Below are positions 4,449 through 63,750 of a stretch of DNA of 64,000 nucleotides, in pieces; position 1 is the first letter of the stretch, and every line of letters begins with the position of its first letter. The notes below the pieces were generated by a model. It was not told the DNA's origin. It made no database searches and was given only the letters and a program-made list of their open reading frames with translations. The position numbers were made by a program, and so were the translations under genes. Source of the stretch: Moniliella sp. 'wahieum' (lineage: Eukaryota); NCBI GenBank assembly GCA_003971905.1, contig RSEE01000023.1:310001-374000 (forward strand), given 5' to 3'.

Positions 4449-6304
4449 GGCGGTGGTGGAGGGGAGGTGGAGAAGGCTAGGAAGAGAATGGTTGGGAGAT
4501 GTCTGCAGCTGGTGGGGGGCAAGCTCTTTTCAGCGGGCGCTTCTAGATCCAGGCACCAAGTCGGAGGCACGGGTATTTGCGAGATGGATGACACGGAAAA
4601 TTATTGCCCAGCCCCCCAACGCCCCCCAGAGGATTAATGTCAGTCAGTCGGCTCCGGCTCCGGCTCCGGCTTCTGGAAGAGCCGGCGGCGCCCGAAGCAG
4701 GGGGCGAGGCAGTCGCGTGGCGCGCCGGATGAGCGATGAGCGCGACCAATACTATAGGCGCATTGCGTTGGGATGTGGGCCCCAATTCCTTGGTTCGGGC
4801 GTGTCCCAGCACCGCACTGAGCATGATTATTGAGCAGCCTGAGCTGTGCAAAGGAGTTCAGCAACCCGTCGACTTTTGAGTGTTGAGTGTTGCGTATCGA
4901 GCACACTGAGGGGCCTGAGGGCCTGATGAAGCACGGAGTTCTCAATGAGTCCGTTGCCAATTGCGCCCAGCGGGCACACGAAAGGCACGTGAAAACCGCC
5001 TGGCAGAGGCCAGCCACAGCCGGAAGCCAGTGGCCAAGAGCTTCAAAGCTTCTCAAGCTTCTATCGTCCAAGCTGATCACATGCAGATCACAAGCTTCAA
5101 GCAAGTGTCCAACAGTGCCACAGGTGCCTCAGTTCCACCCGGCCGTGTCCAACCAGGCCCAACTCTGCCCAACCCCGACCACCTAGCGACCCCACCAGCC
5201 AACCTTCAAAGCGTCAACCCACACACCACCTTAACAGTGAGCGGAACCTGCGTCCAGACTAGTAACTAGTAATAGCCGCCGTCTGCTGCTCCGTCAGCCA
5301 ATGCCCCTTCCGCCTAGGCGGTTAGCAGCCACGTGACGTACGGCACGTGATGCGGATATTGCCACTTCATTTGCACCGATGCCCACAACAGCTGCGACAC
5401 GCACCTGTTTCCGCCCTGCACTGCGGATCTCGGTTGGCTCAGCTGAGATCCAGGGCTAGTATACGAACAAGGGACGAACATGTCCAGTGGACGTGTTGAG
5501 CAAGCGTTGAACATTGAGCCGTCACGCCAATAGCATGAGGAGCTTGAAAACCCCTGGCTGGTGCCCACCACCCACCACACGCCCACCATGTCGGATGGGC
5601 TCAAACTCCTTCTTCCCCCCCAAAGCCACAGTGTGTTTAGCACACTCTCGGACAACTGTTGTGGGACAAGCTGCCAGCAGCGTCAAAAAGCTTCAAGTTG
5701 GCTCACGCCGAACGGCTGGTATGCCAGGTGGCCCACAACAGGATGGCAGTGCGGAACTAATCCTGCATGTCCCAACAGCCTCTATGATGATGTTCCCGTT
5801 CCCTTACTGATTCTCAAACCCTTTTCCGGGCCTCTGGGCCACCAGAACAAGTCAAACATCCCACACCGCCCTCCCACAGTGTGATTTCTGCCCTTGGTGC
5901 TCCATCGACGCCGGCACCCCTCATTAATGTCGACCTGGTGACCAAGACGCGGGAGAGTGTCCGGATGCTCTCCACATATACGTGTCCCAGATGTGGATAA
6001 TAGCGTGCTGGTCGCAGACTCTCCGGGAGCGGGACGTTACGGGGCGGGAAACGAACAGGATGTGATTGTGTGCAGAAGCGTCACCTTTTTAGGATGGGCA
6101 TACCTGCTATACGACATCCTTTCCACACCCCAAGGTGATCATGATGGCCGCCTTCCTCGTCTACTATACGCATGCATAGCTTGCCCCACAGGCTTTCTTT
6201 CAACACTACTAAAATGTTCTTTGCGCGCGGAGTTTCGCTCAGCGCTCACTCAGCTGTTCACAACAGCCCCTTCCTGGATCATGCAGATCATGTATCATGC
6301 AAGC

Positions 6305-6332
6305 TCAACGTTCAACGTTCAACGTTCAACCC
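6305..6332. repeat. 7-bp palindrome array (AACGTT-C)n
   Basis: tcaacgttcaacgttcaacgttcaaccc; exact reverse complement of 6793-6820. Confidence 0.95.
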
Positions 6333-6790
6333 TTCAAGCTTCATGGTACCTGAGTTCTGAGAACCTGAGGTCTGGCCCCTGGGGGCAGGATGACGTTGAT
6401 GATGGTACAGAGTGCGGGGGATACGGATTGGGGGATGTGTGATCGATATGCAACGAATTATTGTGGCGTGCAAGCATATAACGAAGTGCTCAAGATCTGA
6501 GACGAGGTACGGTCTGGTACGGCACCGGTACGGCGTTATATATGTACTCTTGAGTACAAGTGGCGCCGCCGGGTTTCACTGCGGCCTGGTCACCGGTCAC
6601 ACACTGGAGACAAAAATGCCGCCAGGGTTAATCGATAATCGATCGATTATAGATTTAATCGATTAGGTCTAGTTTTGAGACGCGTGATGGAATAGAATCA
6701 GAGTTCTGAGATAGATCTCTCATTATAATGATCCTAGTTACCCAGCGATGTCCTAAGTGCAGTTATGCAGTGGTAAAGAGAAGACAGGAG

Positions 6791-6826
6791 CTGGGTTGAA
6801 CGTTGAACGTTGAACGTTGAACCCAG
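6791..6826. repeat. 7-bp palindrome array (AACGTT-G)n inside an inverted flank
   Basis: ctgggtt-g-aacgtt-g-aacgtt-g-aacgtt-g-aacccag. Confidence 0.95.
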
Positions 6827-6839
6827 ACTGAGGATCACA

Positions 6840-6980
6840 GAAGAAGAAGAAGAAGAAAGAGAAGAAGAAGAAGAAGAAGGAGAAGAAGGAGAAGAAGGAG
6901 AAGAAGGAGAAGAAGGAGAAGAAGGAGAAGAAGGAGAAGAAGGAGAAGAAGGAGAAGAAGGAGAAGAAGGAGAAGAAGAA
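6840..6980. repeat. Pure-purine microsatellite: (GAA)n plus about 11 copies of GGAGAAGAA
   Basis: Directly visible; about 140 nt of A/G only. Confidence 0.97.
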
Positions 6981-7306: not shown

Positions 7307-7340
7307 CACCATACACCATACCCCATACACCATACACCAT
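7307..7340. repeat. (CACCATA)n heptamer tandem repeat
   Basis: caccatacaccataccccatacaccatacaccat. Confidence 0.85.
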
Positions 7341-7556
7341 ACGCACCACATACATCTTTAATTCTTGCAAACCACACGGCCCTATCATGCATCATGCCGC
7401 ATTCTTAAAAACAACTATCAGTGTGGCATGTATAGCGTAGAGTACTAGGGGCAGATATCAACGCACATTCGTTGTGCACGTCTGTTTTTGTATGTAATAT
7501 TTGCTTACACACTGTCGGAATGCTCGAAACTGAGAAGTAGTATCTCCTGTGTTGCT

Positions 7557-8018
7557 TCCATTTCATTGGCAGAGCTTAAGGCTGGGACAGGGGGAACGCT
7601 ACGTCTAAACCTAACCGTTCATCTTGCGGGGGTTACTTGGGGGCGCTACCAGGGTCAAGGAACCAGGGGGATCGCCAGGATATCAGGACCCTCCGGCTCG
7701 CGCCATCCGGTCCCGTACCCTAGGTAGCGCGTGTGGACACGGATGAACGTGGTTGACATCCGAGCGAGGAACCATTTCCACTGAGACTTGGTAGCCAACT
7801 CCTTCCAATGCGCAAACAACTTGCCCGCTGTCTTGGTGCCGTAGTATCCTCGCGTCGTCAAAACCAGGGGGAAAAACCGCTCTTGAGTGCGTCCCTGGTA
7901 CTTGGCGTTCTTGTCGCATTCTGCTTGTTCAAGCATCCGAAGCAGCTCCTTCTCCCGGCGTTCCAAGGGGGTTGCGGTGCTCTCATGCACCACCCTCTGG
8001 AACGCGCTCTGCGCCTCC
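7557..8018 (-). mobile_element. 5'-truncated non-LTR retrotransposon (CRE/Cnl1-like): restriction-like endonuclease C-terminus plus 3' UTR
   Basis: ERREKELLRMLEQAECDKNAKYQGRTQERFFPLVLTTRG fits the RLE E..K..KY...F.P.....G pattern. A second diverged copy lies at 10667-11240; similarity between copies stops near 8018. Confidence 0.8.
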
Positions 8019-8019
8019 A

Positions 8020-10330
8020 GCATACAGATAGAAAAAAGAGAGTCTGATACAAAAAAATATACTGACAAGGTTCAACCGGATACCGCGTCTCTCATATACG
8101 ATTGTCGGAGCTTCCTATAGTTTCCTTCAGAGCACGGGACGCCACTATATATGGCGGTAAGAAATTGTGATAAAGGGGGCAATATACCTCCACACCCGAG
8201 AGACAGCATGAGTGACAAGACGGAGATGGGGGAAAGGGCGCAGATGGATTGCATACATCTATGGACGCAGAGGAGGTTATGTACCTCCTCAGGAAGGGGG
8301 CACAGTCGAGAGGTGGACACAGGATCTCCCAACTGATAAGAATCACGCCATAGTGCCCATACGGGTCTAGTGGCCAAGGGGCCCCTAGCACGGCGTGAGT
8401 CTGACAATGAGTATGGAATGGAGAGACGAGAGCTAGTCAATTGCTCTCGAAGAAGACACGCGAGACGGATGAGACACAGGGAGATCATGAAAATCCAAAA
8501 AGGGAATTTGAGGCAAGAGAAGTATGTGAGGGAGCAGGGGGAATTTTGCCGGTACCGTGGTCAACAGAATGGGGAAAGGGGAGAGGAAGGGAGGGGGGAG
8601 GGGAAGTCCGGCCGGGGGCGAGATACACAAGGGAAAAATTGATGCTTGTGCCACAACCTGGATGAAAGGTCGAAAACTTGCAGAGATGCAAAAAAGGTAT
8701 GAAGGAGGACAGAGAGGATGACCGAACGAAGGTAATGAGGAAAAAGCCGCATCACACGTCAACGGGAAAAGGGGATCTTACATCGTGATTGGGCTAAATG
8801 AAAGAAGAGGGGGTAAGGATGAGCGCACCGATAAGTCAAGGGGGGCAGCGTGTCATGTTCTTCTTCACCTCCAGTTGAAGGGGAAGGATTTTCCGTGTTT
8901 TTTGGTGGGCAGGGGACAGAAGTCAAAGCGGTAGCCAATTCCTCAGATTTAGAAGAGGGAGGACAGGTATGTTCCTGTTTGAGAGACGGTGGCGCGGAGG
9001 GACCCAACTTGGGAAGAAACAGATGCATCACCAACAAGAGCTACTGAGTCTGGGTCAGCTTCACGAGAAGGAAGCATTGGTTCCCACATGCTCTTCGGTT
9101 TGGCAGGTGCACCGTGGGTCGTTTGCTTGAAACTGGGGCTGCGTGTGTGCTGATCTTTGTGTTTCCCATTGGACTCGGTAGGAGCGGCTGCGCCTCCGTC
9201 GGACGTCACGCCCCTTCATCTCTTCAAGAATGATATCCCCTAGGTGGCCAGAAATTGAAATATGTGGGATGCGACCCAGGAAATGTGTTCGTCAGGAGAA
9301 TCCAGCGTTTCAGCCGCAGGAGGAGAGGCTGCTTCAGCTTCCGGAATACCGCTAGACCGAGGGAAAGGTGCGTTTATCTTTGCCGGAGGTGGTTTGGGAG
9401 GAGACGAGATAATCGGTGGGGCGGGGCGAAAGGAAAAGTCGGGTTTCCATTTGCGTCGCCTATATGTTGCATTGTCAAAACGTGAGCGATCGCAGGTTAG
9501 CAATGCGTTGCACAACAGAAGTCTCATCCGGGGGCAAAAACGAACATGTGCAAAAAGTGTTGCAAGTCCTCTTGCGTTCGTTGCGCTTCGACACGCCGCG
9601 CATCCAGTCCCTCGCCATGCAGGTTGAGATCTGCTGGATGATCTGAGCCGAAGCGTGAGACGATGGGGCCTTGCGATGTGGTGGCGTCTCCTCCAGGGGT
9701 GATGGAGATGGGGGTGAATTCAAGAGGGTGTGGTGGTGTCGGTAGAGAACGACGGACAGGTGGCATGGATGTTGAAGATGTGGTATGGATGGAAATGGCA
9801 GAAGGGGCCGATTGACTGCTGCTTGCCACGAGCGGAAGCTGGGGCGGGAGAGAGTTAACATCACTATTACTGTGTGTAGGCTACTGCGAAGGGGAGAGGG
9901 ATGAAGGCTGGGGGAAAGGTGGGGTTCGGGATTCTTTTGGGCTGGTGAAGCTGGTGCAACAAACTCGACAGAAACCGCATCAGGTTCCACCACTGGCGGA
10001 GGAACTTGCACTGATACTGGTTTTCGCTGCACGGCTGTTGGAACAGAAGGTGGTGGGACGGAGGTGATGGAGGGGGCTGGGGGAGAAGGGAGCGATGGAA
10101 TCGAGCCGTGGGGCTTCGAGGGAGGAAGCGGGCAACAAGAGTGTGGGTGCGGAGGTTGTGGCTGTGCCTGCGCATGCTAATGACTTGCTGGTGGTTGCGC
10201 GTCGGATCTTGACTTTGGCCAAGACCATCAATCAAGCCTGCCTCATTGGAGGCAGAGCCTTGGGCGAGGTCAGGCCCCCACTACGATGGAACCAGCGCGA
10301 CAGCAAGCCAATCTTGCCCATGATGATCGT
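8020..10330 (-). pseudogene. Decayed Pro/Ser-rich gene, possibly a Cdc25-type RasGEF relic
   Basis: Chain of broken minus-strand ORFs with in-frame stops (e.g. FQFLAT*GISFLKR*). Fragments LYHNF/LTAIYSGV, SEGNYRKLRQ and SVYFFVSDSLF occur in the order of RasGEF motifs NNF.S..AI..GL, S..NY..YR and G.YL.DL.F. Confidence 0.33.
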
Positions 10331-10548: not shown

Positions 10549-10666
10549 CGATTCAAGCTCTGATGTATATACTTTTTTGCGGGAGCATTTGGGTGGCGGG
10601 TAGCTCGGCAGTGGCGCCCATGGTGGGTGCCACAACCGCTCAAAAACTTTTTATCTCTAGACTTCA

Positions 10667-11240
10667 TCCATATCATTTTGACAGTGAGCTTAAGGCTGGG
10701 ACAGGGAAACGCCACGCCTAAACCGACCCGTTCATCTTGCATGTGCTGCTTGGTAGCGCCAACCCCGCTTAAGGAACCAGGAGAATCGCAAGGTGATCAG
10801 GACCCTCTGGTGCCTGCCATCCGTTCCCGTACCCGAGGCAGCGCGTGTGGACATGGATGAACTCGATGAACGTGGTAAGCATCCGAGCGAGGAACCATTT
10901 CCATTGAAAGTCAGTAGTGAAATCCTTCCAGTGCGCAAGCATCTTTTGCTCGCTGTCTTGGTACCGTAGTATCATCGCGTCGTCAAAACCAGGGGGGAAA
11001 ACAGCTCTTGGATGCGTCCCTGTTACTTGTCGTTCTTATCGCATTCTGCTTGTTCCACAGCAGCTGAAGCAGCCCCTTCTCCCGGCGTTCCAAAGGCGTC
11101 GCGGTGCTCTCATGCACTATCCTCCGGTACGCGCTTTGCGCCTCCTGCGATCTTATGTCGCGCAGCGTGTGGTCCACCTCCATTCCTGATCTCCCGATTG
11201 CTCGGCACGAGCCCCAGCTGACCGACGGGCCGTAGTCCCG
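10667..11240 (-). mobile_element. Second 5'-truncated CRE-like copy (endonuclease domain plus 3' UTR), degenerate
   Basis: EVDHTLRDIRSQEAQSAYRRIVHESTATPLERREKGLL and AHWKD...QWKWFLARMLTTF...HVHTRCLGYGNGWQAPEGPD align with the 7655-8018 peptide. Confidence 0.82.
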
Positions 11241-13039: not shown

Positions 13040-16000
13040 ATACGCGTCACGCGCCACCGACGAATTGCGATAGCGTCACGCGTGTCACACGCATCACAGT
13101 ACGTCAACACAGTGCGTGTTTTAAAAAAGAACTGGTCACCCGTAAGCGAGGTAACCGGTACCCGGTTACCGAATCGATAATCACATGCATCACATGCACA
13201 ATCGAGATCCATCTCTGCAGCTGCACCTAGAGTAGACGTCGGGTGCAAGGGGGCGGATGGGTGTAGCAGCTCCCTCTGTTCGTGCCTCTTTGTGCGTTAT
13301 GCTTTCCGAAGCACATACACAGTATCAGTAGCTCGAACCAATTGTAGGTGTGGCCTGGGGTGGCAGGTGTAGCACTCTGTAGGGGTGGTGAGGCTGGCGG
13401 CGAGGCCGTGACGCGTGAGGCCTGAGGCCACCGTGAGGCACTGGCCGCCGGCCCCCGAAGGGAAATTTGCCCCCCTAAATTCACCGGCTGAGGGAGCTGG
13501 AGCACGCCTGGGCCGGCACGGAGGCGCTTGCGGGCCTTGCGGAGTTCGCTGAGGTCGGTGCCACCTCTCAGGCCCTGGGGCCTGAGGCCCCTGAGAGTAT
13601 CGATAACCGGTTACTATTAGCCGATAACCCTCAGGCTGAGGGCCTGAGCCTCAAGCCTCACTAGCACTATCAATGATCAATGAGTGACCGGTGACCGGGC
13701 GACCTGTGAACGGGTGACCAGTGATCACGGTCTGATCGATGATCGAATATCGGTAATGAAAACCGGCCGGTAATTCCGGTAATTACCAGGCGGGTTACTA
13801 GGTTACTCCGGCACTGGTTACTCCTCTGGGGTTCTCCGCGGTGATAAAACTTGGTTTCTTGTTTGCTACCCTAGGAAAACACTTGACACCGTGGGGGGGG
13901 GGGGGGCAGCAGAAAGCCTATGGCCCCTAAAAACGATTGCCCAGAGTCCAACAATCGCACCCTTTGTGGATGAGAGGCCACGCCAGCAACACCAGGCAAC
14001 ACCACACACTCCCTCTTTGCCTGTGCAACAGAAGTCTCTTTTGACCTTATTCGATGTAGGGCCTTCTTAGGCCCTATGACTGTCACTGGAATTCGTGTGT
14101 GAAATTGTGAATGAGGACTGGTGGGAATGCGCTTGATCCATGAGCGCACGATCCATAAGCATGGAAGATGAGCATGTTGAATGCCGGTGGTGAGCCGGTG
14201 ACCGGTGAGTGTTGATCGTCACCACAGTGAGTGTACTGAAATGCGCTGGCGAGTATCTGTACGGTGAGTTAGCATTTGACCTAAACACAGTTGATGAGTT
14301 CATTAATCCTCGTACTGAGTACAGTACCCACCGACTGTGACTTCGCACTCAACGCGAGTTGCTGTCCTGAGGTCTGACGGCCTGACCGGCTGAATACTCG
14401 AACTGACCAGTGACTGAGTACGAGTACTCAATACTTACTCAGTACTCAACGTTCAACTGAGTACTCAACTTGGTACTCAAAGGGAGTTGCTGCCCTCAGA
14501 CTGAGGCCTCAGACTCAATCGCACTCGATACTACTCGGTCAACCCGGTCAACGACGTTCAACGTTGAAGGTTCAACCCGACGCGATTAAATGAGTACTCC
14601 GAGCACTGTTAGTTCAACGTTCAACGTTCACTGTATGTTCACTGTTGGACTGGGTCTTTGGACTTCCGAGCTCACTCACTGTGCTCAAGTAGTGTGGTCG
14701 CTCGCCACGTTGTCAGCAGTCAGTTCACTATTCACTAGCAACTAGTCACTAGTCACTAGTCACTAGGTAGTCACTCCAGCAACCCTTCTTGGCGCTCGCA
14801 CGGAATTAATTGAACGTTGATGCATTGAAGGTTGTGGGGAGACGAGCGGGCTAGTCGCGGTGGCCGAAGAGGACTGGGTACTGGGTACTGATGTGGCGCT
14901 GATGCGGCAACATAACGGGTAACCGGCAATGTTAATGAAGACTCGATGACGTATGTTGCCATAGGGGACGTGTGGCACGTCGCGAGGGAACAATACTGTC
15001 CGTGTGCTTCGTCCTATACTACCACCTTGGGCACCAACAGGCACTTATTGACTGTTGCCAGCTCGTAAATGGAAGACACTATGTGACTGGTGCGGATGTG
15101 GGGCGGGGGCAAGAGCTCCGGGTGTGGACTGCTGCGGGCTCGTCTCTAGCTTCAAGCTTTGCCCGTGAGGCCTGAGGCGAGGGGTCGCCTACTGCACCAT
15201 TAGTTGCAGTAGTATGCATCACACGCACATCACAAATGCCGCAGCAGTCGCGAGAAGGGGATCAACACCCGCAATTAGTGGTGCATCTGTGCATTTGTGA
15301 GGGATACCAGGGATACGATCGATCGGATACCGATCCTACGGGGATCGCGCTGCCAAGGCCGGAGATAGTAGTGGGCCAGTTGGTGGCAATGCTGTACTTA
15401 CCAGAGGTGGGGCTTGCTAGGACCTGCGTTCCTGTGCACGTTCCTGCGTTCCTGTGCGTTCCTGCGTTCCTATGCCGGTTCCTTTGCCTTAATAGTTTGG
15501 CAGGAGCTGTTCTACTGCTGCACCTTTTATTTTTGTTCATAGCGCAAGGCCACACGGCCAGTGCAATGGGAAAATGTGGGTGAGAGCAGCGACTGGGGCC
15601 AAGGAAGGCCAAGGAAGGCCAAGGACCAAGTGGCAGAGCGGAGCGGCGGTATGTCCATTTGTAGTAGTAGGAGCTTCCACCTGCTCTCTGCAGCTCGAAG
15701 AATCGCGCTGCTTCAAGCGTCACGCGTGACGCGCCATGCGTCATGCGTCGCTTCTGCCACTTTGGATCAAGGTGGCGATCGGCTGCTACAGCGCAGCGGA
15801 GTGACTAGTGGCCAGTGACCAGTCAGTGAAACCAGTGACTACCATTCGCGCGTGTTCGTTCACGCGTCACGCGTCACGCTCAGCAGGCTCACCGGCCACC
15901 CCGCTCACCGGCAATTATCGGCACCGAGTTCATCTTGTTCACGCGTCACCGCGTCACACGTCACACGTCACCTAGGTCCATCACTTTTTTCTTTTTTTCG

Positions 16001-16160
16001 TTCGTCGACCATTGATCGATCCATGGCCATGCCTTCCAATGCGGGGTGCGCAAGGCACAAGAGTATGAAGTGGAAGCAGCTGGAGGGGTGAGAACTCTGG
16101 AGACTATTTCGGGGAACATTGCACCGTTCCACATTTCTCCACTCATCGATCATCGATCAT
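13040..16160. repeat. Dense field of T-N-A-linked hexamer palindromes
   Basis: Examples: 13411 acgcgt-g-aggcct-g; 13599 atcgat-a-accggt-t; 14441 agtact-c-aacgtt-c; 14741 (actagt-c)x3; 14813 aacgtt-g-atgcat; 15862 (acgcgt-c)x2; 16145 (atcgat-c)x2. Confidence 0.9.
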
Positions 16161-17511: not shown

Positions 17512-17517
17512 TATATA
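17512..17517 (+). promoter_or_regulatory. Possible TATA box of the STL1-like gene
   Basis: TATATA about 75 nt upstream of the ATG at 17588, followed by a pyrimidine-rich leader. Confidence 0.4.
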
Positions 17518-17587
17518 CCCCCGCATTCGCCCCCCGCTCTTTTCCCCACACACCCCCACAACCACAGCTTCCCCTCTCCCTCTACCA

Positions 17588-41295: not shown

Positions 41296-41337
41296 TCATG
41301 TCATTTACGGGACTTGAGGCTGGGACCAAGAAACGCT
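41296..41337 (-). mobile_element. Very diverged 3'-end relic of the CRE-like element
   Basis: tcatgtcatttacgggacttgaggctgggaccaagaaacgct resembles 10465-10521. Confidence 0.45.
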
Positions 41338-41812
41338 GCACCTGTCAGTGTCATAGTTTGGCTGATCTCGCTCCTATGTTTCCAATTTCTTCGTCCCGAC
41401 GAGCGTCTCGTTCGTTCCCGGCTGTTCTTCCGCTTCGCCCCACGTCCTCTGCTGTTGCTTCTTCCCCACGAACTATTTCTACAACCCTTGCCTAGTCCCG
41501 ACTCTGGTCACCCTCGCCTTAGCCCCGACTGTGACAGTCAGGCTCGTTCATTGAGTTCATCGGGCGAATAAACCGCAAACAAGACCATCCCTATTGGCCC
41601 TCCCTTCATCGATCCCCAGTCCCTCTCCATCCTCTCAGTAATACTAAGCACAGGGACGCTCAGGACATAAAATGCCCGACCACCACTCATCAACATACAT
41701 TCAAACTTGATTCGCCTCTGCGTATATACGCCCACGCAACCTTGGCACTCACAACCATCCCCCGTTTCAGTGTTCTCCCCTCCTTTTTAATGTCGTTGAT
41801 GATATCCAACCC

Positions 41813-49110: not shown

Positions 49111-52100
49111 TCATCCGTCTAGCCTGGAAAACATAGGAGGTGCAAAAATGCAAAACAGCAGTATATGAGTGGTGGTGAATCCGGTGAAGGGTGGTATGCA
49201 GTGCTTGGGCGACAAAGGAGGGAGACTACGGAGAGTGGGGGAGGGCGTGGGTAGGGGGGTCGCTGTCGCCGAGTGCGGGATGCTCCGTTGGGGCATGGTG
49301 GAAGTGGAGGCGTGTACGGGGCTATGCAGGCGGCTGCGGCTGAGCAGGCTGTGGACTCTGCCCATGTCGTTGGAACGGACGCCAGAAAGCGCACTGCCCG
49401 AGGGAGCGCGCTGCATGCTGCTTGTTGCCCAAGCGCGAGATCTCCATCGAGGTGAATCGGAGCTGGCGGACAAGTACCCGGCCAGCTCTCTATCGGGGGA
49501 TTTGGGCTCGGCAGTTCTCCCGCGCTGAGCCTTGGCCGCCACAGAAGCGGCTTGCTTGCGCACCTTGTCTCGCAGCGCTAGGGCTTGGCGACATTCTGGG
49601 CGGCGATGCCGAAGGAAGCCCTTAAGGATTGTGGTGCGCTGGCTCCAAGCCAGCGAACAACAGCTAGAATCCAATGTCAGCACCAGTGCGTCAGAACAGG
49701 TTTAAGGGCATGAGACAAACCCTTTCTTGAACGCATCCATGACAGCCTCCAGTGTGCCTGTGGTTTTGTCTCAGTTCCAGGGGGGGCGTCTCGACGACCG
49801 AATCTAGAGGTTGACCAGTTTGTGTCCCGCGGGTAGGAGAGGCAAACAAGCGTTTGGGAATGCGAACATACAAAACGTGCGATTCCGTGCTGCCCGCTCC
49901 CGCACACGATGCAATCTGCATCGTGGTCAGGTCCAATCGTCCCATTCGGTCAAAGTCGGGTGCGACTTGCCCGCAGTCTTGTTCTGCCTCGCTCTAAGCT
50001 CAACGATAAAGTGGAGGCATCGCGGTCGTTGCTGCCCGGACGGAGCGGGCTGCCTCTCGCGTAGGGTTGACCCCCTTGTGGGGACTGCTGCCGCGACCAC
50101 CGAAAACTTGAACACTCCGAGCGGTGGGACCACGATCCGCACGAGTCTGAGAATCCGAGTCACGTTGGCTCGCAGAGTTGGGAGAGGGGGTCAATATGTG
50201 TCCGGCCACCCTCAGGCGCTTTTCTCGTCCAACTCATCCCCTTTTTTGTGGCGCGAGGGAAAGACGTATTCAGCAATCTCTTTGCCGATCGAATCTCTAA
50301 TGGACATGAGGGGTGGATATCCACTTCAAATCGATCCACAATGTCGATCCCACCGACGGGAGCTAAGACTGCCAGACGCCTCGATGAACCGTTTGTTCTC
50401 AGCCATGTAGTGGCGTTGGCCTCCTTGTACTTGCTAAAGATGAGGGGGAAGATTGCATCCGGCCGTACGTCCCGTGCCTTCGACGTCACAGATCGACAGG
50501 GCATTGGCGATGGAACTGTCAGTCTTGCTCACACATGTGAAGCTGGTGCCATGGACGTGAAGTTCGGCTAAATGTTCGGCTTCCAGCTCTGTTCGGCGGA
50601 AGGCGAGACGGGACTTGGCGGCGGTACGGAGCATGGTCCAGACAATCTGCTCTGCGTTGGCCTCGAGACGCAACGCGCGCTTTTTGTCGGAGTCCTGGCC
50701 CGCTTGCTGGTCCTGAGCGGTTTTGATAGCGCTCATGAAAAGAGCCAACTCATCAATCAGGTCACGTAAGGTGAGACGTGCACTCCCCCGCGTCAAGCCG
50801 GCCCTGCTCATTCAGAAATGTGTAACTGGCCTCGTAGTCTTCGTGGAGGTGGGAGCTGCCCAAATTTTTTCTTGTAATGACGATACAACGCGGGTCAAGT
50901 TGTGCGAATCGGTAAAGTCAAAGGCCAATAGCAAGGTTTTGAGACGCTCTTGGCGCTGCTTGTAAGCGGGATCACTGTACAAGAGCAATTTGGTTGCACT
51001 GTAGATCGCTCCAAACTGGTCCGCATCGGCAACCACTTTAGCGGGGGCGCGGTTACACGGACCAAATTCGTCTGGTGAATTAGATGTTCTTGTCCTTTGG
51101 GACTTGCATCGGCGTCACAGCCGTATCCTCGTTAGCCAGACGAAGTGGATTGAAATGATCGTACTGCACCATGGGCGCAAAATGGGAGCTAAGCTGGTGA
51201 AAGCCTTCCCAGACGGTTTGATGTTCCTCCTGGTCGAACGGGTCTAGAAGGCCTCGATCGGAAGCACACGGGGTGCATCGGCCTTGGCAACCCATAACTT
51301 GACACTGTCCGCAATGAAGAAGGTTCTGTTGAGAACGTGAGAGTTGATCTCGTGATCTAATGCCATGGGGTCGTGGACGCTGAAGGTGGTAAGACGCAAG
51401 CGCACGGCTGTAAGTACGACGGAAGAGGCCCTGTCCAGATCGCTGCGAAGAATGATCTGCGGACGCAAGATGGCGCAGACAGTACTCTTGCGTATCTCAA
51501 GCTCGGGAAGGATTCCACGATATGGATCGACTATCAACGACGGAGCAAGTGGAGGGGTGCCTTTTCCTCCGTCGTAGTCGCTCCTGCGGAATCGAAGAGA
51601 CGAATCGTGTCATCCAAGAGGGCGCGAAGCATTTCCGCTCCTCCCCCAGGAGCAGCACTGGTATCGGGTTTCTGCCCCAAACGCAAATCTTGGATACTTT
51701 TGAGGGCAGCTGCTCGGAGGAAAATGAGCCTGAGCCCGACGCATACCTCTGGAAACGTAGTACCGGAGGAGGATGTTCCTTGTACTCTCCGTCCAGAACA
51801 AATGGGGCAATGCACCACATAACGATTGGAAAAGCGTTCCCAATGCCCATGAAGCTCGCTCAGCTCTCGTCGACGAGCCACCGTTTCGTCCGGTACATAC
51901 GTCGGAACGGTCCACAACCCATCCGAATGGACTTTGCTCTTCGTGCGGAGAAGATCATCCGGATCTTCCTGGTGTTTCTGGAGTTTATGCTTACGTCGAT
52001 GGGTTTGCACCCCGCAGCCGTCCATTTGGGCGGGAACGAGTTCAGTAAAGTCACGAATAATGTGAATCGATCGTTGGCGGTGAGCCGTCTTCGGCTCCGT

Positions 52101-55100
52101 ACGCAGTTCAGCAATTCGCTCATTTAGCAACTTTTGTTGGACCTGGTCCGGACCTAGAACGAATTACAATGTTAGTACTTTATTATCCGGATCGATCATG
52201 AGATGAGAGAAGACGTACTGTGGCATTGGCCCATCAAGCATCTGTGTGTGCCTTCGTGGCCAAACTTGCTCTCGCCGTAGGCGCCCAAATGAGCATGCTC
52301 TCCTGCCTCTTTGGCAGCGGCGAATTACCCTCCTTCATGGCACGTTCTTGATCTGCTTTGATCTGAAGTTCAATCTCTCCGCGTAGGAGTGCGGCGGAAG
52401 TAATTGGATGCAGGCCACTCCAGAACCTTCTCGCTACGAGCGCGAGACCGCAACTCGGGTACTCGGCCAATGCGTGAGCCCAATTCCACGTAATCCCGCA
52501 TGTCCCACCAACCACTCGAATCGCCTTGCGACTCGTCTGGACCATCTTGCAGGAATACCGCGCCGCCGAGTCGTCATTAAAATCATCGGCTTTGTCCCCC
52601 AACATTGCAGCCCAGTGGGCCGCCCGACCGAGGTCGAGAATCCTGGCCGCACAGACCCGCATCTCTCCCCCTCGGCAATCAACCTCAGCAGCACTAATGG
52701 GCTTGTGGAGTCCAGTCTGGTTTTTCCGGCAGCGTTCTTGAAAAACGTTTCTTGCTGCCGCTGGTGCAAATCAACATTGAACGTCTCCACCCGCGCCTTG
52801 AGTCCGAGGAACAAGTTCGCACCCCGTCGGTGCCGCGCCGCATCGTGCTGGAGGTAAATGTGGGAGAAGAACATTGGTGCCAGGTCGATTCGATACTTGA
52901 TCGTTGCGCAATGTTGCCCAAACTTCGGGGAGGGGGAAGGGAGCGAAGGGAATAATGGGCCCGCACGAATGGGAAGACTGAGGCACTATTGAACAGAGCG
53001 ACCCAGGCAAAAAAGTGAGCAGAAACGAGGGGCGTGACATACAGACTGTTGGTGTCCTCCCTTCTGTCGAGCGAGCGTGAGAGCGAACCGAGAGTGAGAG
53101 ATGGACATGATGGTGTCTCCATCCAATATAGGAGTCACCGCGTGCAGTAGTAGAGAGCGTATCCAGATATTCGGGGGTGCGGGGAAGCACCTTCCAATGG
53201 GATACTGTGTTGAAGAAGCGGCATGAGCGATAAAATGCGTTGGGGCTTGTACACTTGGGATGGCTCACGCAATCTGGCCCACTGCAGGTCCGTTCCAGAA
53301 CAAAGCCCACCCCCATACCACGTTTCCATTGAGCGACCACACCACCTTCTGTAGTGGTATGGGGGGCAAATCGATACGATGTGGTCCATCTTGTGAAGGC
53401 ACACTTCCTTCAGTTGCAATCGAGCCCGGTCCATGCGGACGGGCCCTCAGGGAAACCAGGCCGCAAGCGAGAGGGGTAGCAAAGACGTTCAGATCAGGAA
53501 TAGCCAGTTCATAGCTCCAGAAAAGATCTGGATTACCTCGCGCTCTGAGTTTTGCGGGGGAGCAATTTGGACCCGCACTCCACCAGACCATACCTGGACC
53601 CAGCCAGCCCATGGCCTCGGAGGTTATATGGATCCCGACTTCCTTTCTGTATGACCAAAACAAGTTAGTTCCAAAATCCGACATGTGTGAGAAGACGCGT
53701 ACCAAGAAAAGCTGCACAGCCGAAGGCGCATCCACCAGAAGCTCAAAGCTCCCATGGAGAATGAGTGGGATCTTATCCCAGAACCCGATTTTCGGGCTGG
53801 GATCGAGTGGAGGCGAGCTGAATCCGTCAAATACCTTGGTAACTTCCGCAATGGCGGGGACATGGACTGCCCCCAAGCTAGCTGCAGGGGCGCGGTAGAC
53901 CGGATTTGAACAACGGGGTGGCCAAACATCTTGGTTGGCATAGTGACCTTCGGAATTTGCAGGACATAGTCTGTCCCGCAGGCACCGATACAGTCGGCAT
54001 GAACGAGGCAGGCTTGGAGATGACAAGTAGATCGCTCATCGCCCATCTGCTCAGCAATACACAGATCCGTAACAAGATGGAAAGCCGCAGGTGAGTGGGG
54101 TTCTCCTTTTGGTGGTCGTGCCGGGTCGAACGGTTCGATGGTGTCCGGAAGAACATGCACCAAGGGCAAAGGGTAGTCGCGCAAGGAGCATAGCCACTCA
54201 TCCATCTCCCACTCAAGGTGCATGGGTATAAAAATGGAGAATGTCAGCCCCTCTGGAATGGGATCGCCGAAGGAATCGATATAGTCCCGGGCCGATGGCT
54301 CTGTCGCTGCAAACGTGTAAGGTTGGGACAAACGTAGGTCAACATGCGTCATAGTCGAGCGGAAGAGAGGGGAACAGAGGTGCATATCCCGAAGATGCTG
54401 CCAAGGACGTTGCGAGTTAGTGCTCCCGGCATCCCAGTTGGCCATCACGGTGGGCGCAACGGGATAGAGTCCCCGCAGCTTGGCTCGAACCTGTTCCTCC
54501 TTCTGTCGCACCTCATCCTTCGCGTTATTGGCGACCTTGATCCATTCCTTCGAGTTGTACTCCTTCAGTCTATAGTGACGGCTTCAATCGTCGCGGTGAC
54601 GGAATCAGTGGAGTTTGAGGCGTCATCCTCCGATTCGTAGAGCGACCCAGGCTCCGGGGTCTCCCTCTCTGATATGGAAGAGGTGCTCGACGCAGGGTGT
54701 CCAAAACCTTTTGTTCGGAGCGGTGATACTTTCCGCTGAGCAACGATGGAGCTTCCTGAACGCTGCAGAGAGGAGAGAGTCCGGGAGTGATGCAGTTTGT
54801 GCTTCTCCCAGCCAAAGGAAGGCCTATTTCGAGCCGATCCGGCCGGATTCGCCGAACGATGAGAAGAGAGAAGCGCTTCCATCTCATCCTGGAAAGCCGC
54901 TTCTCGCTCTGCACGGTAATGCGCTTCATCTGACCCAACGCGCTGGTAGATGCGCAGAAAAGAGTCCAATAGACTGTCCTCCATCTCGATCACAAGAGTA
55001 CGAAGGCGCAAACGTATCGGTGGAAGCGGGAGGGGTTTCATCTCGCTGGGCGCAACCTTGTAGTCCAACTGTCCCAATAGGGCTTCATGGGCCAACTGCT

Positions 55101-58100
55101 TGGTGGCCTTGACTCCTACCGACGTGCCCACAACCACTTCGTGGAAAACGAATTGGAACGGAATGCACAGGTGCGCATGTTTGCCCGTCACGAGCAATGA
55201 AGGCCAATGCTTGGTTTCCTCCACCATCTGTTTTGCTGGGCCAAGTGGCTCCGATGGCTCGGTGAATGTAGTGGATGAAGCGGTGATGATATTGCTCGGA
55301 TCTAAGCGCAAGGTGGACCAATCCACCTCAATCGCACCGTCATCCCAGCCAACCAATTCAGCCCACTCTAGCTCATCCAGAGGCTTCCAAAGGCCCATCT
55401 TGTTTTGGTGCACAGCCCCAACCAAATGACGAAACTGGAAGAGAAAGTTAGGTAACTTGAGCGCCCCATTCTCGCCCCTAGGAAGTGGGAAAGACAAGCT
55501 CTGATGCGCCGAGATATCAGCCACTCCAAAGAAGAGATGAAGCCCATTGGGGAGACGAATCGGCATGTCCAGTCTTCCGAAGGTTAAATCGAAGGAAACG
55601 GATCTTGGTTTAGAACTAGTGGATATGCCATCCCTTTCGTCTGATTCGGACTCTGGCTGGACTTGCGAAGAGAATGGAGCTGCCGTCCCAGAAGACGAGT
55701 CCATTGCCTTTTTCGCTGCCACCCATACCCTTCGCACAGCCGCAAGGGCCATAAATAGAACATAGGTGTTGGCCAGCTCCGTCACAACGGTAGTGCAGGC
55801 TGGGAACCGGGAGCGGATGATGATTTCGTTCCCCACGCCCGTGGAAGGCGGAAGGATCACGTCAAAGGTGCTTAAGGGGACGTGCAGGAGCAGGTGGGGG
55901 CGATGCTCAGTCTCAACGTCAGGGACAGAGGGGGGCCCGGAGGCCTTCCTTCCCGACGAGATGGGTCGATCGCCATCACATTCAATTCATACATTGTTGA
56001 ACGTATGAGTAAGGCTTCTCCAGTACTCTGAGACTGAAAAAAGGCGGCATCCAGCGCGTCGGGCTCCAAGTTCAGTTGGCGTCGGCTTTGCTGGGAGGTA
56101 AACCACGCCTCGCTTTCCCGGGGAGACGTACGGACCGCTGCGAGCTCCATTCGCCAGCGGGGAAAGAGTGTGCGGATGCCGGTGACAGAACTGGTTAGAG
56201 GCGGGAGGGGTGGGCAAAAGGGAGGAAGCTGGTATGCCAGTGTAGTGGCGGGGGCGAAACCTGGTATGGGAGTTAGCACAGCCAAAACAAGAGGAAGGAA
56301 GAACAGCGTACCATCCCTGCATGCCGGTGGAGGCGGTGGCGTTGAGGAATTGGTGGGTGTCTGAGGGGAAGTATGCTGACCGGCAAGGTGAGGGCCGCGT
56401 TTCGGATCCAGCGCCGCACACCTCCCATCAAAGTCTAGGAGATTGAGGTTAATATAGAATCGATGGGAGTGAGAGGGAACCTCGTCTGCTGCGGTACCGA
56501 CCGTACGAGCAGGGGTTCGAACTCGCTTGCAATGGGCGGGCGTGGAGGGCGTGGCACGGATGTATGGGCTTGGCGCACCAGCTCCATCATACGTCCTGTG
56601 GCAGGCGAGGTTCTCCAATACTAGCCAAGTGAATGGGGTATCGAGCTTGACCCTATCGCACGAGTGCCAGTAAGGGTACCCTGGGTATGGACGTGGATGG
56701 AAGGCTGCCGACATTGGTCAACAGTAGACCCAGCCGTCATGTTTCCCTCAAGCAATGCCTCGAGAACGTCGAGGATGGTCTCATTTTCCGTCAAGCGAGC
56801 TGCGTCGAAGGAGAGACGAGAGAAGCCAGCAGAAACTATGCTGCGGGATTGAAGGATTCCCTCACGGGGTGGAAGGTGCTGGATGTCCGCATGCAACTCC
56901 CTCGCCCTTGCGATGAGGCAGGTCCGATCTGGTCCACTGACGGTCCCCTTCACCTCTCGTACCGACAGTTCCGCCAGAAGTACAATCCTAAATTTGGAAA
57001 CGAGGCGGTCTACCAGAAGAGCCACAGGGTCGCCACGTGGATTGTTCTTCGAAGACGAGGGGTGCTGCCGCATCATCCGTATCAAAGCAGTGAGGAGGCT
57101 GGTATAGTCGTCCGGCGGGTGATCCAAAGGAAGGGACCAAAACCCATGAATCTTGGAGACTCCCACCTCAGCGTGAAGCAGGGCGGATTACCGTCGTTCG
57201 GAACAAGAAGCTGTTCCCTTAAGAGTCTGCAGGGATCCTAGGGGGTTACCTGCGAGGAGATCGATATCCGTGAAGAGATAAACGCGGGGAAGAGACGGAG
57301 GTGAACGTGGTCTAATGACCAGGTTCCGATCAAATCGATAATCCGCGGTTGCTGTTCGCTCTTGCGCATTGCCTGGTTTAGTTCCACGCCCATCGAAACA
57401 GTCCGCCTTGTTTCTTCTCCAAAAGCGCGGACGGTGTGAGCTGAAAGGATGACGGGCCAACATCGAAGGATAAGAGAGATCCATCGTGAGACCCCCCCTT
57501 GACAGGGTTGGGCGAAGTCACTGCATATAACAGGCGCACGGCACCCAGCCGGACGTCGGACTGATGCACAAGCCGCAGCCAGGCAGGAGCACAGACGTCT
57601 CCTTGAAAAGCTCCGACGCAGGGGGGGTATCATTAGAAGCGGGGGAGGGTACACTTTGCCTCCTCCGTTGCGCTGACGCTTTGGCCAGACGAAGAAGAAC
57701 AAACAGGGCATTGATATCAACCACCACCGGTGGTAGGGTCACATCGGCTCCAATGGCGCGCAGCGAAGCCTCAAACGGCCCCCAAGAGAAGGAAAAACGT
57801 TCCTCCTGTTCTTGACCACCCAAACTTTCCTGTCCCGCCGCTAGAGGCGGATCAAACCCAAAGCTCAACACCGGTTCGCCACGCCGACTTTCGTCTTTTT
57901 CCATGGTCGCAAAGCGATGGTTGTGTAGATGTCGTCTTTATGAAGACGTGGCCTTTATCTGGGCAATGGACGACGGAGCGAGACATCGGCGAGTCCGGGA
58001 GAGAGGTGGAATCTGCCTCATCGATTCCACCCCAAGAGCTGCAAGTGCCCTTCCAAGAAGAACCAGAGGAGAACGACCAAAAGTGAGTGGACTGGGCAGA

Positions 58101-60578: not shown

Positions 60579-60718
60579 CTGAAGCTGCTTGAAGCTTGAA
60601 GGGCTTGAAGCTCCTGAGTACCTGAAGCTCTGAATCTTTAAGATCTCTCAGATCCCACGCTTCAAGCTTCAAACTGCAACGTTCAAGGTACGTTCAAGCT
60701 TCAAGCTCTTGAAGCTGA
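60579..60718. repeat. AAGCTT/AACGTT/AGATCT T-N-A palindrome cluster
   Basis: ttgaagcttgaag ... cttcaagcttcaa ... aacgttcaag ... acgttcaagcttcaagct. Confidence 0.88.
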
Positions 60719-61289
60719 CAGAAGGGGCCTTGCCCAAAACGGAGTGGGTCAACAAAGCACGTCAGAGAGCCCGCCCCACCCAGAAACGCATCGCCGGTGC
60801 ATCCCCCACCTGCTTGCATTGATATCCCCGCACCTGCCACACCCGCCCGTCAGACCCTCTTGAAAACAGCATCGACGGAAGTACCCCTCAAAAACCCCAC
60901 ATGGCCACTGGGGCAATATGAGCGCTATATTGTGTACTAGTCCGCTGACCCTCAGCCCACACCCGGCCGGCAGCAGCCGGTAGAAGCCGCGGCGAACCCT
61001 AGACCAACCCCTTGGGAACAAGTGAACTGCCGCCAGCGCCTCAGAGCGCGGCTCGGCGCGGCCTAGCACGCGGCTCTCTCGGCCATTTTGCCTCTTGCAG
61101 TACGAAATAGTGACCAATAAATAGGCGGCAGTCCCAGTTGTTTTAGCTCTCGATATGGACTCTCTTTGAGAGATAAAAACCCTCTCTCGGTGGGCACCTT
61201 GGGAGCGAGGGTGAGTATTACCAGCCCCGCCAACTAACCCATCTAATTTTCCGCAACCATCACTCCCGCGGTCTCAATCTCGGACGCTG

Positions 61290-62982
61290 ATGGATGTGGA
61301 ATCCTCTCCTCCAACACAGGAGGAATCCAGCTGTGAGCCTCAATGTCTGTTTGACCGTATGCCCTCGCTGTCCTCACAGGGAAGCAATTCTGGGTCCTCC
61401 TTAAATGTGGCCCAAGCCGCGAGCAAAGACAACGAAAAAGAATCGGACATGGCGCCCGTGGTAGTCCAATGGGATGAGGGGGAGGCGGCCAACCCACTGA
61501 ACTGGAACAAGACGTACCGCTGGTTCCTGTCCTATTGGGGGGGGTGCTTGTTGGGTGCTCCACCTTCATCTCCACTGTGCCAAATGGAACCCTGGATGAA
61601 ATTCTCGCCGAGTTTCACGTCTCGCACGAGGTCGGGGCCTTGATCATCAGCTTGAATGTCTTGGGCTTTGCGCTGGGTCCGTTTTTTTGGACCATTGAGC
61701 GAGCACGTGGGCAGGAAACCCGTCTTTCTTCTTTCCACCCTGGGAACTTGTTTGTTTTCCCTTGGCTGCGCCCTCGCCCCTAACATTGGAGGCCTACTCG
61801 TCTGTCGTTTCCTTGGAGGAGTATTTGCCGCTGCACCGTATGTCTCTTCTACTTCACGGCTCTTGTTCCACCGCAGTAAACAATTAACCAACCCTCTTTC
61901 CTTTCCAGACTCGTTATCTCGGGATCCTTATCGGAGATCTATGGAACCCCATTGGGACTCAGATGATTGGCTATGGGGTCTTCCCATCGCTTGGACCCTC
62001 GCTCGGGCCTCTGGTCAGTGGGGCAATCTCCGTAACAGGCACCAGTTGGAGGTGGTCATTCTGGGTGGCGACGATGTTCAGTGGGAGTATGGGTGTTATC
62101 GCCGTCTTCTGTGTGAGAGAGACGTATGCTCCCATTCTATTAGTTCAGAAGGCGAAACGGTTACGAAAAGAGTCGCAAACAACAGTAAGATATGTAGCAC
62201 CAATGGAGCTGGTGCCACTCAAACCCAGGGAATTGTTGAGCAAGACGCTTCTCAAGCCTTTTATCATGTTGGTCCAAGAGCCTATGCTAGTTGGCTGCAC
62301 ATTTTGTTGAGCTATGCTTTTGGTCTCCTCTACCTCATCTTTGAGTTTTATTCGTCGTACCGGGAAATTTACGGGCTAAACCCATTACAAGAGGCGCTAT
62401 GCTTTCTTCCTTATCTGGTCGGATCCCCCTCTCCTGCGTCGCATTCTACACGATCGTCGCGCGGTACCAACGCGATCTGGATGCCGCCAAGGCCAAGGAC
62501 CCAGACGCCAAGCTTCCTCCCGAAAAGCGATTACCCATCGTACTCGTATGTGGGCCATGCATGGCTATAAGTTTCTTTTGGTTCGGCTGGGCCAGTTACA
62601 AAAAAGCGTACGGCCCTCTCCCCCCACTCTTTCTCTTCAGAACAAAAGTCTAACCAATGGACTGCTGTACAGGACGTTATGGGCGCCACTATTTAGTGGA
62701 CTGCCACTCGGGTTTGGCATTGCAAGTGTCTTTCTGGGCACCATGAACTATCTTGTGGAAACCTACCGTTCCCACAGTGCGATCGCTCTTGCGGCCCAAA
62801 CCACGGTTCGGTGTTTGGTAGGCGGCGGGTTCATTCTGTTTGCAAACCAAATGAAGGCGCGCTTGGGAGTTCATTGGGCGTCCTCCCTGTTGGGCTTTTT
62901 GGCACTGCTTCTAACCCCCATTCCGTTTGTTTTGTGGTTGTATGGAGCCAAGCTCCGGTCTTGGTCCAGATTTGCCTTCTAA
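61290..62982 (+). CDS. MFS drug:H+ antiporter, DHA1 family (Tpo-like)
   Basis: W..GEAANPLNW, GPLSEHVGRKP, CRFLGGVFAAAP, LGPSLGPLVSG, RETYAPILL, PPEKRL, ALAAQTTVRCLVGGGF, PIPFVLWLYGAKLR. Introns at ~61838-61908 and ~62608-62672. Confidence 0.93.
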
Positions 62983-63564
62983 CCTTGCGACCACTCACGC
63001 CCCTGGCCCGCATATTACCCTGCTTTTGGGATTCTATATACCCTGTCGTATTCACCAAATATATGGCAGGAGCTGCCGCTGTCATATTGAGCGGTTTCTT
63101 TATCTCTAATACTCTATCGGAAGAGACAATATATCAACCCACTGCATTGGAAAACAGGGAACCTACCCCCCAAGGGAAAGATGGGCCAAAACCCTCTGGC
63201 GCGCCTGGGGGAAGAAATTTTCGGGGTGAGGGAGGCGGGGAGTGCGCGTAGCACAGCCTCAGACAGGCTCCCCGACCAGTCTTCGCCTCTGAGAGACCTG
63301 AGATGTGAGAATCGCACCGTCGTTGACTCTTTTATTATTGTGGCCATCTTCATGTTTTCGTGTATCGGTGCCACCACTCTGATGCTCGGGTTTTTGTACT
63401 CTAAGTTCTTCATAAGGGGTTTCTACTCAGTACGTACTTTCATTCTCGCCTGTAAGCTTCTGTGTATCGGAGTGGATCTGAGGTCTGTGCCGATAAACTA
63501 GTACTACACAACTATGAGCTCCTGCTGTAGCCCATATCACATCCGATCAGTATGTCCTAGTGGC

Positions 63565-63750
63565 GTGACGCGTGACGTCTGATGAAGCAAGTTGCATGTG
63601 ATGCACATGATGGAACCCGTCCATGTGCAGGACCATCGATCATCGACCCGTCCTCAGGACTGAGTGTACTCAGGGTACTAGCTGTACTCCAGCTGAGGCC
63701 CTGAGGCCTGAGGCTCAGCCGGAGCAGAGATCTCAGACTGAGAGCTACCA
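63565..63750. repeat. T-N-A palindrome cluster downstream of the DHA1 gene
   Basis: gtgacgcgtgacg, catcgatcatcga, tgaggccctgaggcctgaggctca, agagatctcagactgaga. Confidence 0.85.

Follow-up and report, generated by a model that had tools for sequence, protein, structure and literature searches.

Genes and repeats of the window

Short intergenic repeats were analysed in a 64,000-nucleotide stretch of DNA from Moniliella sp. 'wahieum' (assembly GCA_003971905.1, contig RSEE01000023.1, positions 310,001 to 374,000), which is called the window below. A first-pass annotation of the same DNA had drawn attention to hexamer palindromes of the form A-NNNN-T, which were separated by a single base and repeated with a period of 7 bp. 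In these repeats, a self-complementary tetranucleotide (N4, the core) lay between two TNA triplets (T.A, where N is any base). The window had a G+C content of ~56% and represented intron-bearing eukaryotic DNA. Its Pfam content consisted of ordinary fungal genes, which are listed together with the repeats in Table 1.

The glycerol-3-phosphate dehydrogenase was nearest to its counterparts in Ustilaginomycotina (Sympodiomycopsis, Jaminaea, Tilletiaria and Exobasidium), with ~64% identity. The organism is accordingly a basidiomycete, and the database searched contained no sequenced species close to it. The affinity of the dehydrogenase was unlike that of the STL1-like transporter, whose top named matches belonged to the Eurotiales (Ascomycota) at ~60%. 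The two genes were ~12.6 kb apart, and no Pfam-recognisable gene lay between them. Judged by similarity, the presence of a Eurotiales-like gene beside an Ustilaginomycotina-like gene may reflect gene transfer or just uneven sampling. The lengths of both transfer RNA (tRNA) genes suggested that they probably contain introns. Moreover, a 402-codon open reading frame (ORF) at 37476-38684 had no Pfam match and carried a 12/24/36-base periodic repeat on the minus strand (38376-38767); it probably encodes a low-complexity repeat protein.

The coding and non-coding DNA were separated according to codon-scored ORFs combined with Pfam, which gave ~14.3 kb of coding and ~19 kb of non-coding sequence. 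Two other masks were dropped, namely a period-3 power map because of its excessive noise and a mask from ORFs of at least 100 amino acids because it covered 87% of the window.

TABLE 1. Heptamer repeats, protein-coding genes and tRNA genes of the window. Lower-case letters between copies denote filler bases; P, palindromic nucleotides.
Feature	Position	Strand	Remarks
GATGACA GATGACA tgtc GATGACA	2293-2317		Plain duplication and a joint with P nucleotides on both sides (tg, reverse complement of ca; tc, reverse complement of ga)
GATGAGC	4728		Plain 7-mer duplication
GATCATG ca GATCATG	6277-6292		7-mer duplication with 2 P nucleotides, spacing 9
(TCAACGT) x3.7	6303-6330		Array, read as three successive scars; self-renewing palindromic target
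(GTTGAAC) x4	6795-6822		Array, reverse complement of the (TCAACGT) array at 6305
GATGAAC-tc-GATGAAC	10856-10871		Copy B of duplicated segment; spacing 9
cg-TGA-CGCG-TGA-GGCC-TGA-gg	13407-13427		Mixed array; left palindrome from preceding cg, right from following gg
(GTGACCG) x2, (TGATCGA) x2	13683-13744		Cluster with these scars
GGTAATT cc GGTAATT	13769-13784		Spacing 9, 2 P nucleotides
ac-TCA-GTAC-TCA-ACGT-TCA-ac	14437-14457		Mixed array; flanking ac predicts both palindromes
GGTCAAC cc GGTCAAC	14537-14552		Spacing 9, 2 P nucleotides
(GTTCAAC) x2.7	14612-14632		Array
(AGTCACT) x3, aggt, AGTCACT	14744-14775		Array and spacing-11 joint, left P nucleotides intact
(TCACGCG) x2.9	15858-15878		Array
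(CGTCACA) x2.9	15952-15971		Plain 7-mer duplication, non-palindromic unit, TCA at positions 3-5
(TCATCGA) x2.7	16141-16161		Array
CATGATG catg CATGATG	16947-16964		Spacing 11; P nucleotides derived from the left and the right flank
(AGTTACT)	21520-21560		Arrays; central base T (TTA core)
GGTGATC cc GGTGATC; ATGCAT-type scars	30245-30352		Cluster; spacing 9; ATGCAT-type scars at 30288 and 30339
CGTGAAC cg CGTGAAC	32973-32988		Spacing 9, at the 3' end of ORF 31973-32977
(GTCACAT) x2.6	37074-37094		Array
AAGCTT-type repeats; GTTCAAG gtac GTTCAAG	60588-60705		Cluster and spacing-11 joint, between the Mog1-like and MFS genes
(GCGTGAC) x2, (CCTGAGG) x2	63564-63713		Scars
Glycerol-3-phosphate dehydrogenase	3525-4334	-	Pfam
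STL1-like sugar/glycerol transporter	17345-19294	+	Pfam
Subtilase			Pfam
DAO-type oxidoreductase			Pfam
Ubiquitin hydrolase	42334-45496	-	Pfam
Hobbit/FMP27 protein	~51250-56700	-	Pfam
Mog1			Pfam
MFS transporter			Pfam
tRNA gene	27735-27821	-	Rfam, 87 bases; also ARAGORN, without anticodon assignment
tRNA gene	33613-33711	-	Rfam, 99 bases; missed by ARAGORN

Enrichment of the palindromes and anatomy of the repeat unit

The palindrome grammar is real and far beyond chance. The hexamer palindromes named in the first-pass annotation were found at all 21 cited positions in the context described; the all-A/T cores, which had been reported as missing, do exist as rare cases (tcaTATAtca at 21099 and tcaTTAAtta at 19909). 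The TNA-palindrome-TNA motif occurred 68 times in the window, against 8.36 ± 2.62 (maximum 18) in 200 dinucleotide shuffles, which bore out the enrichment that had been proposed. An excess of palindromes starting with A was confined to the non-coding DNA (138 versus 57.9 expected) and was not seen over the whole window, where 258 such palindromes stood beside 248 starting with C and 256 starting with G. Among the controls, the outer pairs A.T, C.G and G.C and the gaps of 2 or 6 bases all remained at expectation (6% or 1.6%). In the non-coding DNA, N4 was self-complementary in 59 of the 121 T.A-N4-T.A sites (49% versus 6.25% expected), and the two triplets had the same N in 51 of these 59. The corresponding value in the coding DNA was 0 of 12, in agreement with the statement that arrays lie outside coding sequences.

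Exact tandem arrays with two or more copies were counted and compared with dinucleotide shuffles. For period 7, 46 arrays were found, whereas 50 shuffles gave a mean of 4.02 and a maximum of 9; the values were 35 versus 13.1 for period 6 and 7 versus 0.94 for period 8. Heptamers are the leading short-repeat class of the non-coding DNA here. Furthermore, 26 of the 46 period-7 units were a hexamer palindrome plus one base, for which the chance expectation was ~1; 25 of these palindromes were of the A....T class, one was of the T....A class and none started with C or G. A sequencing or assembly artefact is hardly credible as their origin, because the pattern was limited to non-coding DNA and to one triplet, because a sequence rule of several parts is beyond any base-caller error model, and because two diverged paralogous copies described below differ in the unit.

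The distances between triplets indicated which bases were copied. Identical TCA or TGA triplets were found 76 times at a spacing of 7, against 11.9 expected, and were also enriched at spacings of 9 (36) and 11 (27) and weakly at 8 (25). No excess was present at a spacing of 3 (13 versus 11.9 expected), and opposed TCA..TGA pairs were not enriched at any spacing. The filler between the triplets was a 4-base palindrome plus one extra base in 13 of 25 cases at spacing 8 and plus two extra bases in 20 of 36 cases at spacing 9. The copied unit is the 7-mer NNTNANN, with T.A at positions 3-5, rather than TNA. Between the copies of the 7-mer lay 0, 2 or 4 bases, which were the reverse complement of the adjoining end of the repeat. 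Nine T.A-centred 7-mer repeats were separated by 2 nt, and in eight of them these two bases were reverse-complementary to the dinucleotide next to them (chance ~1 in 8 each); of seven separated by 4 nt, five matched in this way on at least one side and two on both. The maximal 7-mer repeats with 2 nt between the copies, 16 in number, served as a control; the two with a T.A centre were of this palindromic (P) type, whereas none of the 14 others was.

The window was also parsed over all 16 p.q centres, of which T.A is one. When a palindromic N4 was required together with the flank rule, by which xy follows the motif or y'x' precedes it, the T.A centre gave 50 events and each other centre gave at most 5; this class had a mean of 0.27 and a maximum of 2 in 200 shuffles. 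For 7-mer duplications, a 2-nt filler of the P type was found 8 times with T.A and at most 3 times with any other centre; a 4-nt filler that was P-type on one or both sides was found 5 times and at most once, respectively. The 7-mer duplication, the T.A centre and the derivation of the filler from the flanks are direct observations. The flank rule was followed by 50 of the 59 period-7 units. In the incomplete arrays, whose period-7 run was shorter than 7, the predicted xy or y'x' was present at 16 of the 25 TNA-palindrome-TNA loci. Many instances had fewer than two copies. Their period-7 match runs clustered at a length of 5, in the arrangement (TNAxy)(y'x')(TNAxy) or the mirrored one, and both mirror forms were about equally frequent (18 versus 16). 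All 10 loci with a run of 5 were extended by 2 bases on one side only, and none was extended by 1+1.

The run lengths of the homogeneous arrays included 12 and 19, which correspond to 5+7k, and most arrays had 2-4 copies. Mixed arrays, in which one triplet was combined with different palindromes, were found at 13409, 14439 and 17325. The palindromes of the first two were exactly those predicted by the outer flanks, and the third fitted three of the four flank bases. At least 13 different cores were used, without preference beyond the G+C content. After symmetrising, the inferred target was approximately G-N-T-(C/G)-A-N-C, and the central base was C in 31, G in 25, A in 5 and T in 5 cases. The polarity of N relative to gene direction showed weak clustering according to the count of runs.

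Replication slippage of heptanucleotide microsatellites, in which hairpin-prone and nearly self-complementary units are born and expanded more easily, is an improbable source of the pattern as a whole. Period-7 arrays of identical non-palindromic units do exist in the window, namely (CGTCACA)x2.9 and (GGAGACA)x4.4, and (TCAACGT)n recurred in unrelated metagenome DNA (at least 121 stretches, of which many looked bacterial); both observations are in favour of slippage. It leaves unexplained the obligatory T.A, as the other 15 centres showed nothing, and the mixed arrays with their flank-predicted palindromes. The reverse-complement fillers at spacings 9 and 11 (8/9 versus 0/14 in the controls) and the 10-12-mer forms that fall short of two copies are likewise not accounted for. 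In addition, the grammar was missing from 530 kb of control DNA that carried the same heptamer, and the arrays were mostly as short as noted above. The control loci, unrelated metagenome DNA that carried (TCAACGT)3, added up to 529,599 bp and held 7 T.A events, a number within the 2-25 found for the other centres. Slippage may have added copies to existing arrays.

The metagenome stretches with (TCAACGT)3 differed widely in G+C content and sometimes held opposed pairs (L079). The palindrome-plus-one unit TCAACGT is therefore a common, ordinary heptamer repeat elsewhere too. Within the window, the AACGTT-type arrays at 6305-6332 and 6793-6820 formed an exact inverted repeat with 28-nt arms and 460 bp enclosed, around which no matching flanking duplication was found. 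This pair could be due to chance or to an inversion, or it could mark both termini of a small element of the foldback type. The array at 6795 was adjoined by a 9-base purine microsatellite (AGAAGGAGA) with 15.6 copies at 6839-6978.

A direct duplication of ~450 bp (7572-8018 and 10686-11145), whose copies lay 3.1 kb apart and had 83% identity, was informative about a single event. In the alignment of 7540-8110 with 10654-11240, copy A read ...G-GATGAAC-GTGG near 7740-7750, whereas copy B read ...G-GATGAAC-tc-GATGAAC-GTGG. The tc filler of copy B was the reverse complement of the ga that starts the right-hand GATGAAC, which placed TCGA at the joint. On comparison of their sequences, the paralogues represent the states before and after one event, i.e., a 7-mer duplication with two P nucleotides. 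The ORFs of the duplication had no Pfam match, and an old long-terminal-repeat pair, a segmental duplication and a gene family are possible candidates for its nature. A 41-nt motif was present at four places (2716-2756, 7557-7597, 10671-10711 and 41295-41335), and a ~190-bp segment at 20316-20502 recurred inverted at 41349-41540, the pair differing by 2-3-bp indels only. The motif and the segment formed a small dispersed repeat family, which no Rfam match overlapped.

A selected cis-regulatory or structural code, in which short palindromes would serve dimeric factors, cruciforms or RNA hairpins in promoters and untranslated regions, had been one of the proposals of the first-pass annotation. 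The arrays were intergenic and near gene starts and ends, and neighbouring arrays tended toward the same N. Some cores, such as ACGCGT and ACGT, coincide with known sites. Such a code is nevertheless very improbable. The cores were too many and showed no preference beyond base composition, and the flanking triplets were direct copies and not the inverted pair of a dimer type (51 with the same N versus 8 others); N was copied rather than complemented, with no excess of TCA..TGA. Moreover, each core was predicted by the adjacent bases, and one paralogous copy did not have the unit. Binding sites of bZIP or other dimers were rejected for the same wrong orientation.

Transposon excision as a probable source of the repeats

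The heptamer arrays are probably footprints that a family of cut-and-paste DNA transposons left on excision, and not a code, with a probability of roughly 0.65. Read in this way, the window held 66 scars at 51 loci, which together made up 855 bp or ~4% of the presumed non-coding DNA (most within the 19 kb). Outside array interiors, 50 events were counted, of which 42 were in non-coding DNA, 8 were in unclassified stretches and none was in coding DNA. The absence from coding DNA is expected because an insertion of +7 or +9 shifts the reading frame. By analogy with known footprints, we infer both the hairpin chemistry and the transposon itself; the agent would be an element that, like hAT7 or Kyakuja, makes 7-bp target-site duplications.

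According to the proposed mechanism, the element would insert at NNTNANN, with a central base that is mostly C or G, and generate a 7-bp target-site duplication. Its excision would follow a hairpin route, in which each flank end is sealed as a blunt hairpin just past its copy of the 7-mer, and host enzymes would nick each hairpin ~2 nt from the tip. For a target ab-TNA-cd, the nicked flanks would end in duplex TNA with a self-complementary 4-nt overhang, which is cdd'c' on the left and b'a'ab on the right. If one overhang were kept and the other clipped, the product would be TNA-cdd'c'-TNA or TNA-b'a'ab-TNA with a net gain of 7 bp, which is the unit of the first-pass annotation. One whole overhang combined with the two target bases of the other flank would give a spacing of 9, and the retention of both overhangs would give a spacing of 11. 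The loss of both P parts would leave a plain 7-mer duplication (e.g., GATGACA at 2293, GATGAGC at 4728 and CGTCACA at 15952). Furthermore, the +7 scar would recreate a perfectly palindromic NNTNANN target, whose identical overhangs can pair together. Further visits to such a target would thus add identical units and build homogeneous arrays, and a non-palindromic site visited from either side would produce mixed arrays.

Several other models of this kind were tried and rejected. If 3 bp (TNA) were duplicated and the element ends supplied a filler of 4 bp, an excess at spacing 3 would be expected, which was not seen, and it is the 7-mers that are duplicated; this model was also dropped because at least 13 cores would demand equally many element families. 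A 4-bp palindromic target with a mariner-like T(C/G)A footprint left the mixed cores and the forms of fewer than two copies unexplained. A 5-bp duplication (TNAxy) with two P nucleotides implies an asymmetric target and fails for the 16 events that duplicate both outer dinucleotides. If 8 bp were duplicated and the junction base complemented, as in Ac, the left copy in the GATGAAC event would not be accounted for.

A resident or domesticated nuclease could replace the mobile element if, in open chromatin, it cut NNTNANN sites so as to leave hairpin-capped ends or a 7-nt stagger, and end joining then repaired the breaks. It would leave an identical sequence signature, the window contained neither an element nor a transposase, and the very high local density of scars would be easier to accept. 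The duplication together with the hairpin-type fillers needs a staggered strand transfer and then hairpin cleavage at both copies, i.e., an insertion followed by an excision, so that a nuclease would have to carry out two separate reactions. To our knowledge, no free-standing nuclease of this kind exists; none was found in the literature searched on 7-bp and hAT footprints, and a single window cannot show that an element is absent from the genome. Hence, a nuclease is considered an unlikely agent.

Several results weigh against transposon excision. A transposase domain was detected by Pfam in none of the 173 ORF translations from the 64-kb window, and two scans of the window for inverted-repeat elements with 7-bp duplications gave array artefacts only. 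The scar density, with 66 scars in ~20-25 kb of non-coding DNA, is far above that of any transposon known to us. The flank rule was not followed at 9 of the 49 TNA-palindrome-TNA loci; these exceptions were attributed to decay, without proof. Full two-copy arrays, with period-7 runs of 7-8 at 15 loci, were commoner than a random target predicts, an excess that may need preferential repair or revisiting of palindromic targets, or some slippage. Arrays of identical non-palindromic units, such as that of CGTCACA, would also arise by slippage. In addition, the palindromes were even and centred just after the last duplicated base, with no complemented central base. Classical Ac-like cleavage does not fit because the palindromes are even and are not centred on a complemented base; a cleavage that leaves blunt hairpins, like that of Muta1, would be required instead.

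The interpretation in the first-pass annotation was borne out in part. Its alternative of hairpin-end repair footprints at TNA sites was essentially supported, as the palindromes behaved as P nucleotides copied from the bases beside a duplicated NNTNANN. Its view that a geometry and not a sequence is shared was right and is explained by palindromes derived from the flanks. It had also offered fold-back or template-switch synthesis, which was not supported as the primary process. Its remark that no named system explains the pattern did not stand, considering that P-nucleotide excision footprints of Ac/Ds and other hairpin-forming elements are well studied (PMC5873905; PMC5499845).

If the excision reading is true, the repeat grammar is readable as a fossil record of transposition although the element itself is out of view. 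Each unit would then tell where the element inserted, how long the duplication was, what hairpin chemistry was used, and how the host opened and joined the hairpins. Footprints, which are usually treated as rare curiosities of single loci, could be the principal origin of the short tandem repeats of a compact fungal genome. This would be a transposase-driven origin of microsatellites that is independent of slippage, and promoters would be seeded with all kinds of short palindromes. Moreover, duplicated NNTNANN with a reverse-complement filler would provide a sequence test for hidden activity of hairpin-forming transposons in any genome.

Comparison with known transposon systems

The footprints of Ac/Ds in S. 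cerevisiae, C. albicans and plants consist of deletions and palindromic P nucleotides from flank hairpins, with the involvement of Pso2 (PMC5873905). The repeats of the window resemble them in that both copies of the target site are left at the empty site, with short deletions, flank-copied palindromes and end joining (PMC5873905). The two copies persisted here as direct repeats of T.A-centred 7-mers with 0, 2 or 4 nt between them, and the junction bases were palindromic to the adjoining flank. The likeness ends at the length of the duplicated block, which was 7 bp here, unlike the 8 bp of Ac/Ds and of classical Ac-like hAT elements. In Ac-type footprints, the centre of the palindrome is the complement of the base that adjoins the element (PMC5873905), whereas the palindromes in the window were even and began right after the last duplicated base. 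Furthermore, one outcome dominated here, with two P nucleotides gained and two bases lost from the other copy, and the scars were stacked into arrays.

Flank hairpins are formed by hAT, MULE, Transib and RAG, and host enzymes such as Artemis may open them (PMC5499845). The Muta1 hairpin contains both flank strands in full (43+43 nt), and MULEs make duplications of 8-10 bp and are excised mostly precisely, according to the same source (PMC5499845). The scars in the window would share blunt flank hairpins with V(D)J coding joints, Transib and MULEs. The 7-bp duplication sets the scars apart from RAG and Transib, with duplications of 5 bp, and from the longer duplications and mostly precise excision of MULEs. 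Artemis-type enzymes open hairpins at a 2-nt offset, and off-centre opening of a hairpin gives even palindromes from an arbitrary end sequence.

The PIF/Harbinger-Tourist group duplicates a 3-bp TNA target with a free middle base (PMC4561436). Unlike the 3-bp duplication and precise excision of PIF/Harbinger, the duplication here was 7 bp, and there was no excess of TNA-TNA at spacing 3. In Mariner/Stowaway footprints, which consist of TA and element-end bases, the duplication is kept and a short symmetric insert lies between the copies (PMC4561436). That insert comes from fixed element ends, unlike the at least 13 cores of the window, each of which was set by the local flank. Prokaryotic heptamer arrays, in which one heptamer family forms long arrays, also differ from this fungal intron-bearing locus with its many cores in 2-4 copies each. 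In the literature searched on fungal heptanucleotide palindromes, on 7-bp footprints, and on Harbinger/TNA and hAT footprints, the pattern was not found, which is no proof that it is unpublished.

Basidiomycete elements with a 7-bp target-site duplication are hAT7 in Pucciniales and Kyakuja in Laccaria (PMC12730594). They share the phylum and the duplication length with the scars, and hAT7 belongs to a hairpin-forming superfamily (PMC12730594). No homologue of either was found within the window, and neither is reported from Ustilaginomycotina in the available part of PMC12730594. Somewhat less than an even chance is given to the proposal that the agent was an undescribed and very active cut-and-paste lineage, characterised by a 7-bp NNT(C/G)ANN target, blunt flank hairpins that set it apart from Ac-type hAT, ~3 scars per kb of intergenic DNA and revisited sites that grow into arrays. 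In comparison with the systems above, excision footprints with P nucleotides are a known mechanism, which would have acted here at an unusual scale. The unusual features are the 7-bp NNTNANN target with even palindromes, the single dominant repair outcome, the stacking into arrays and the density of the scars.

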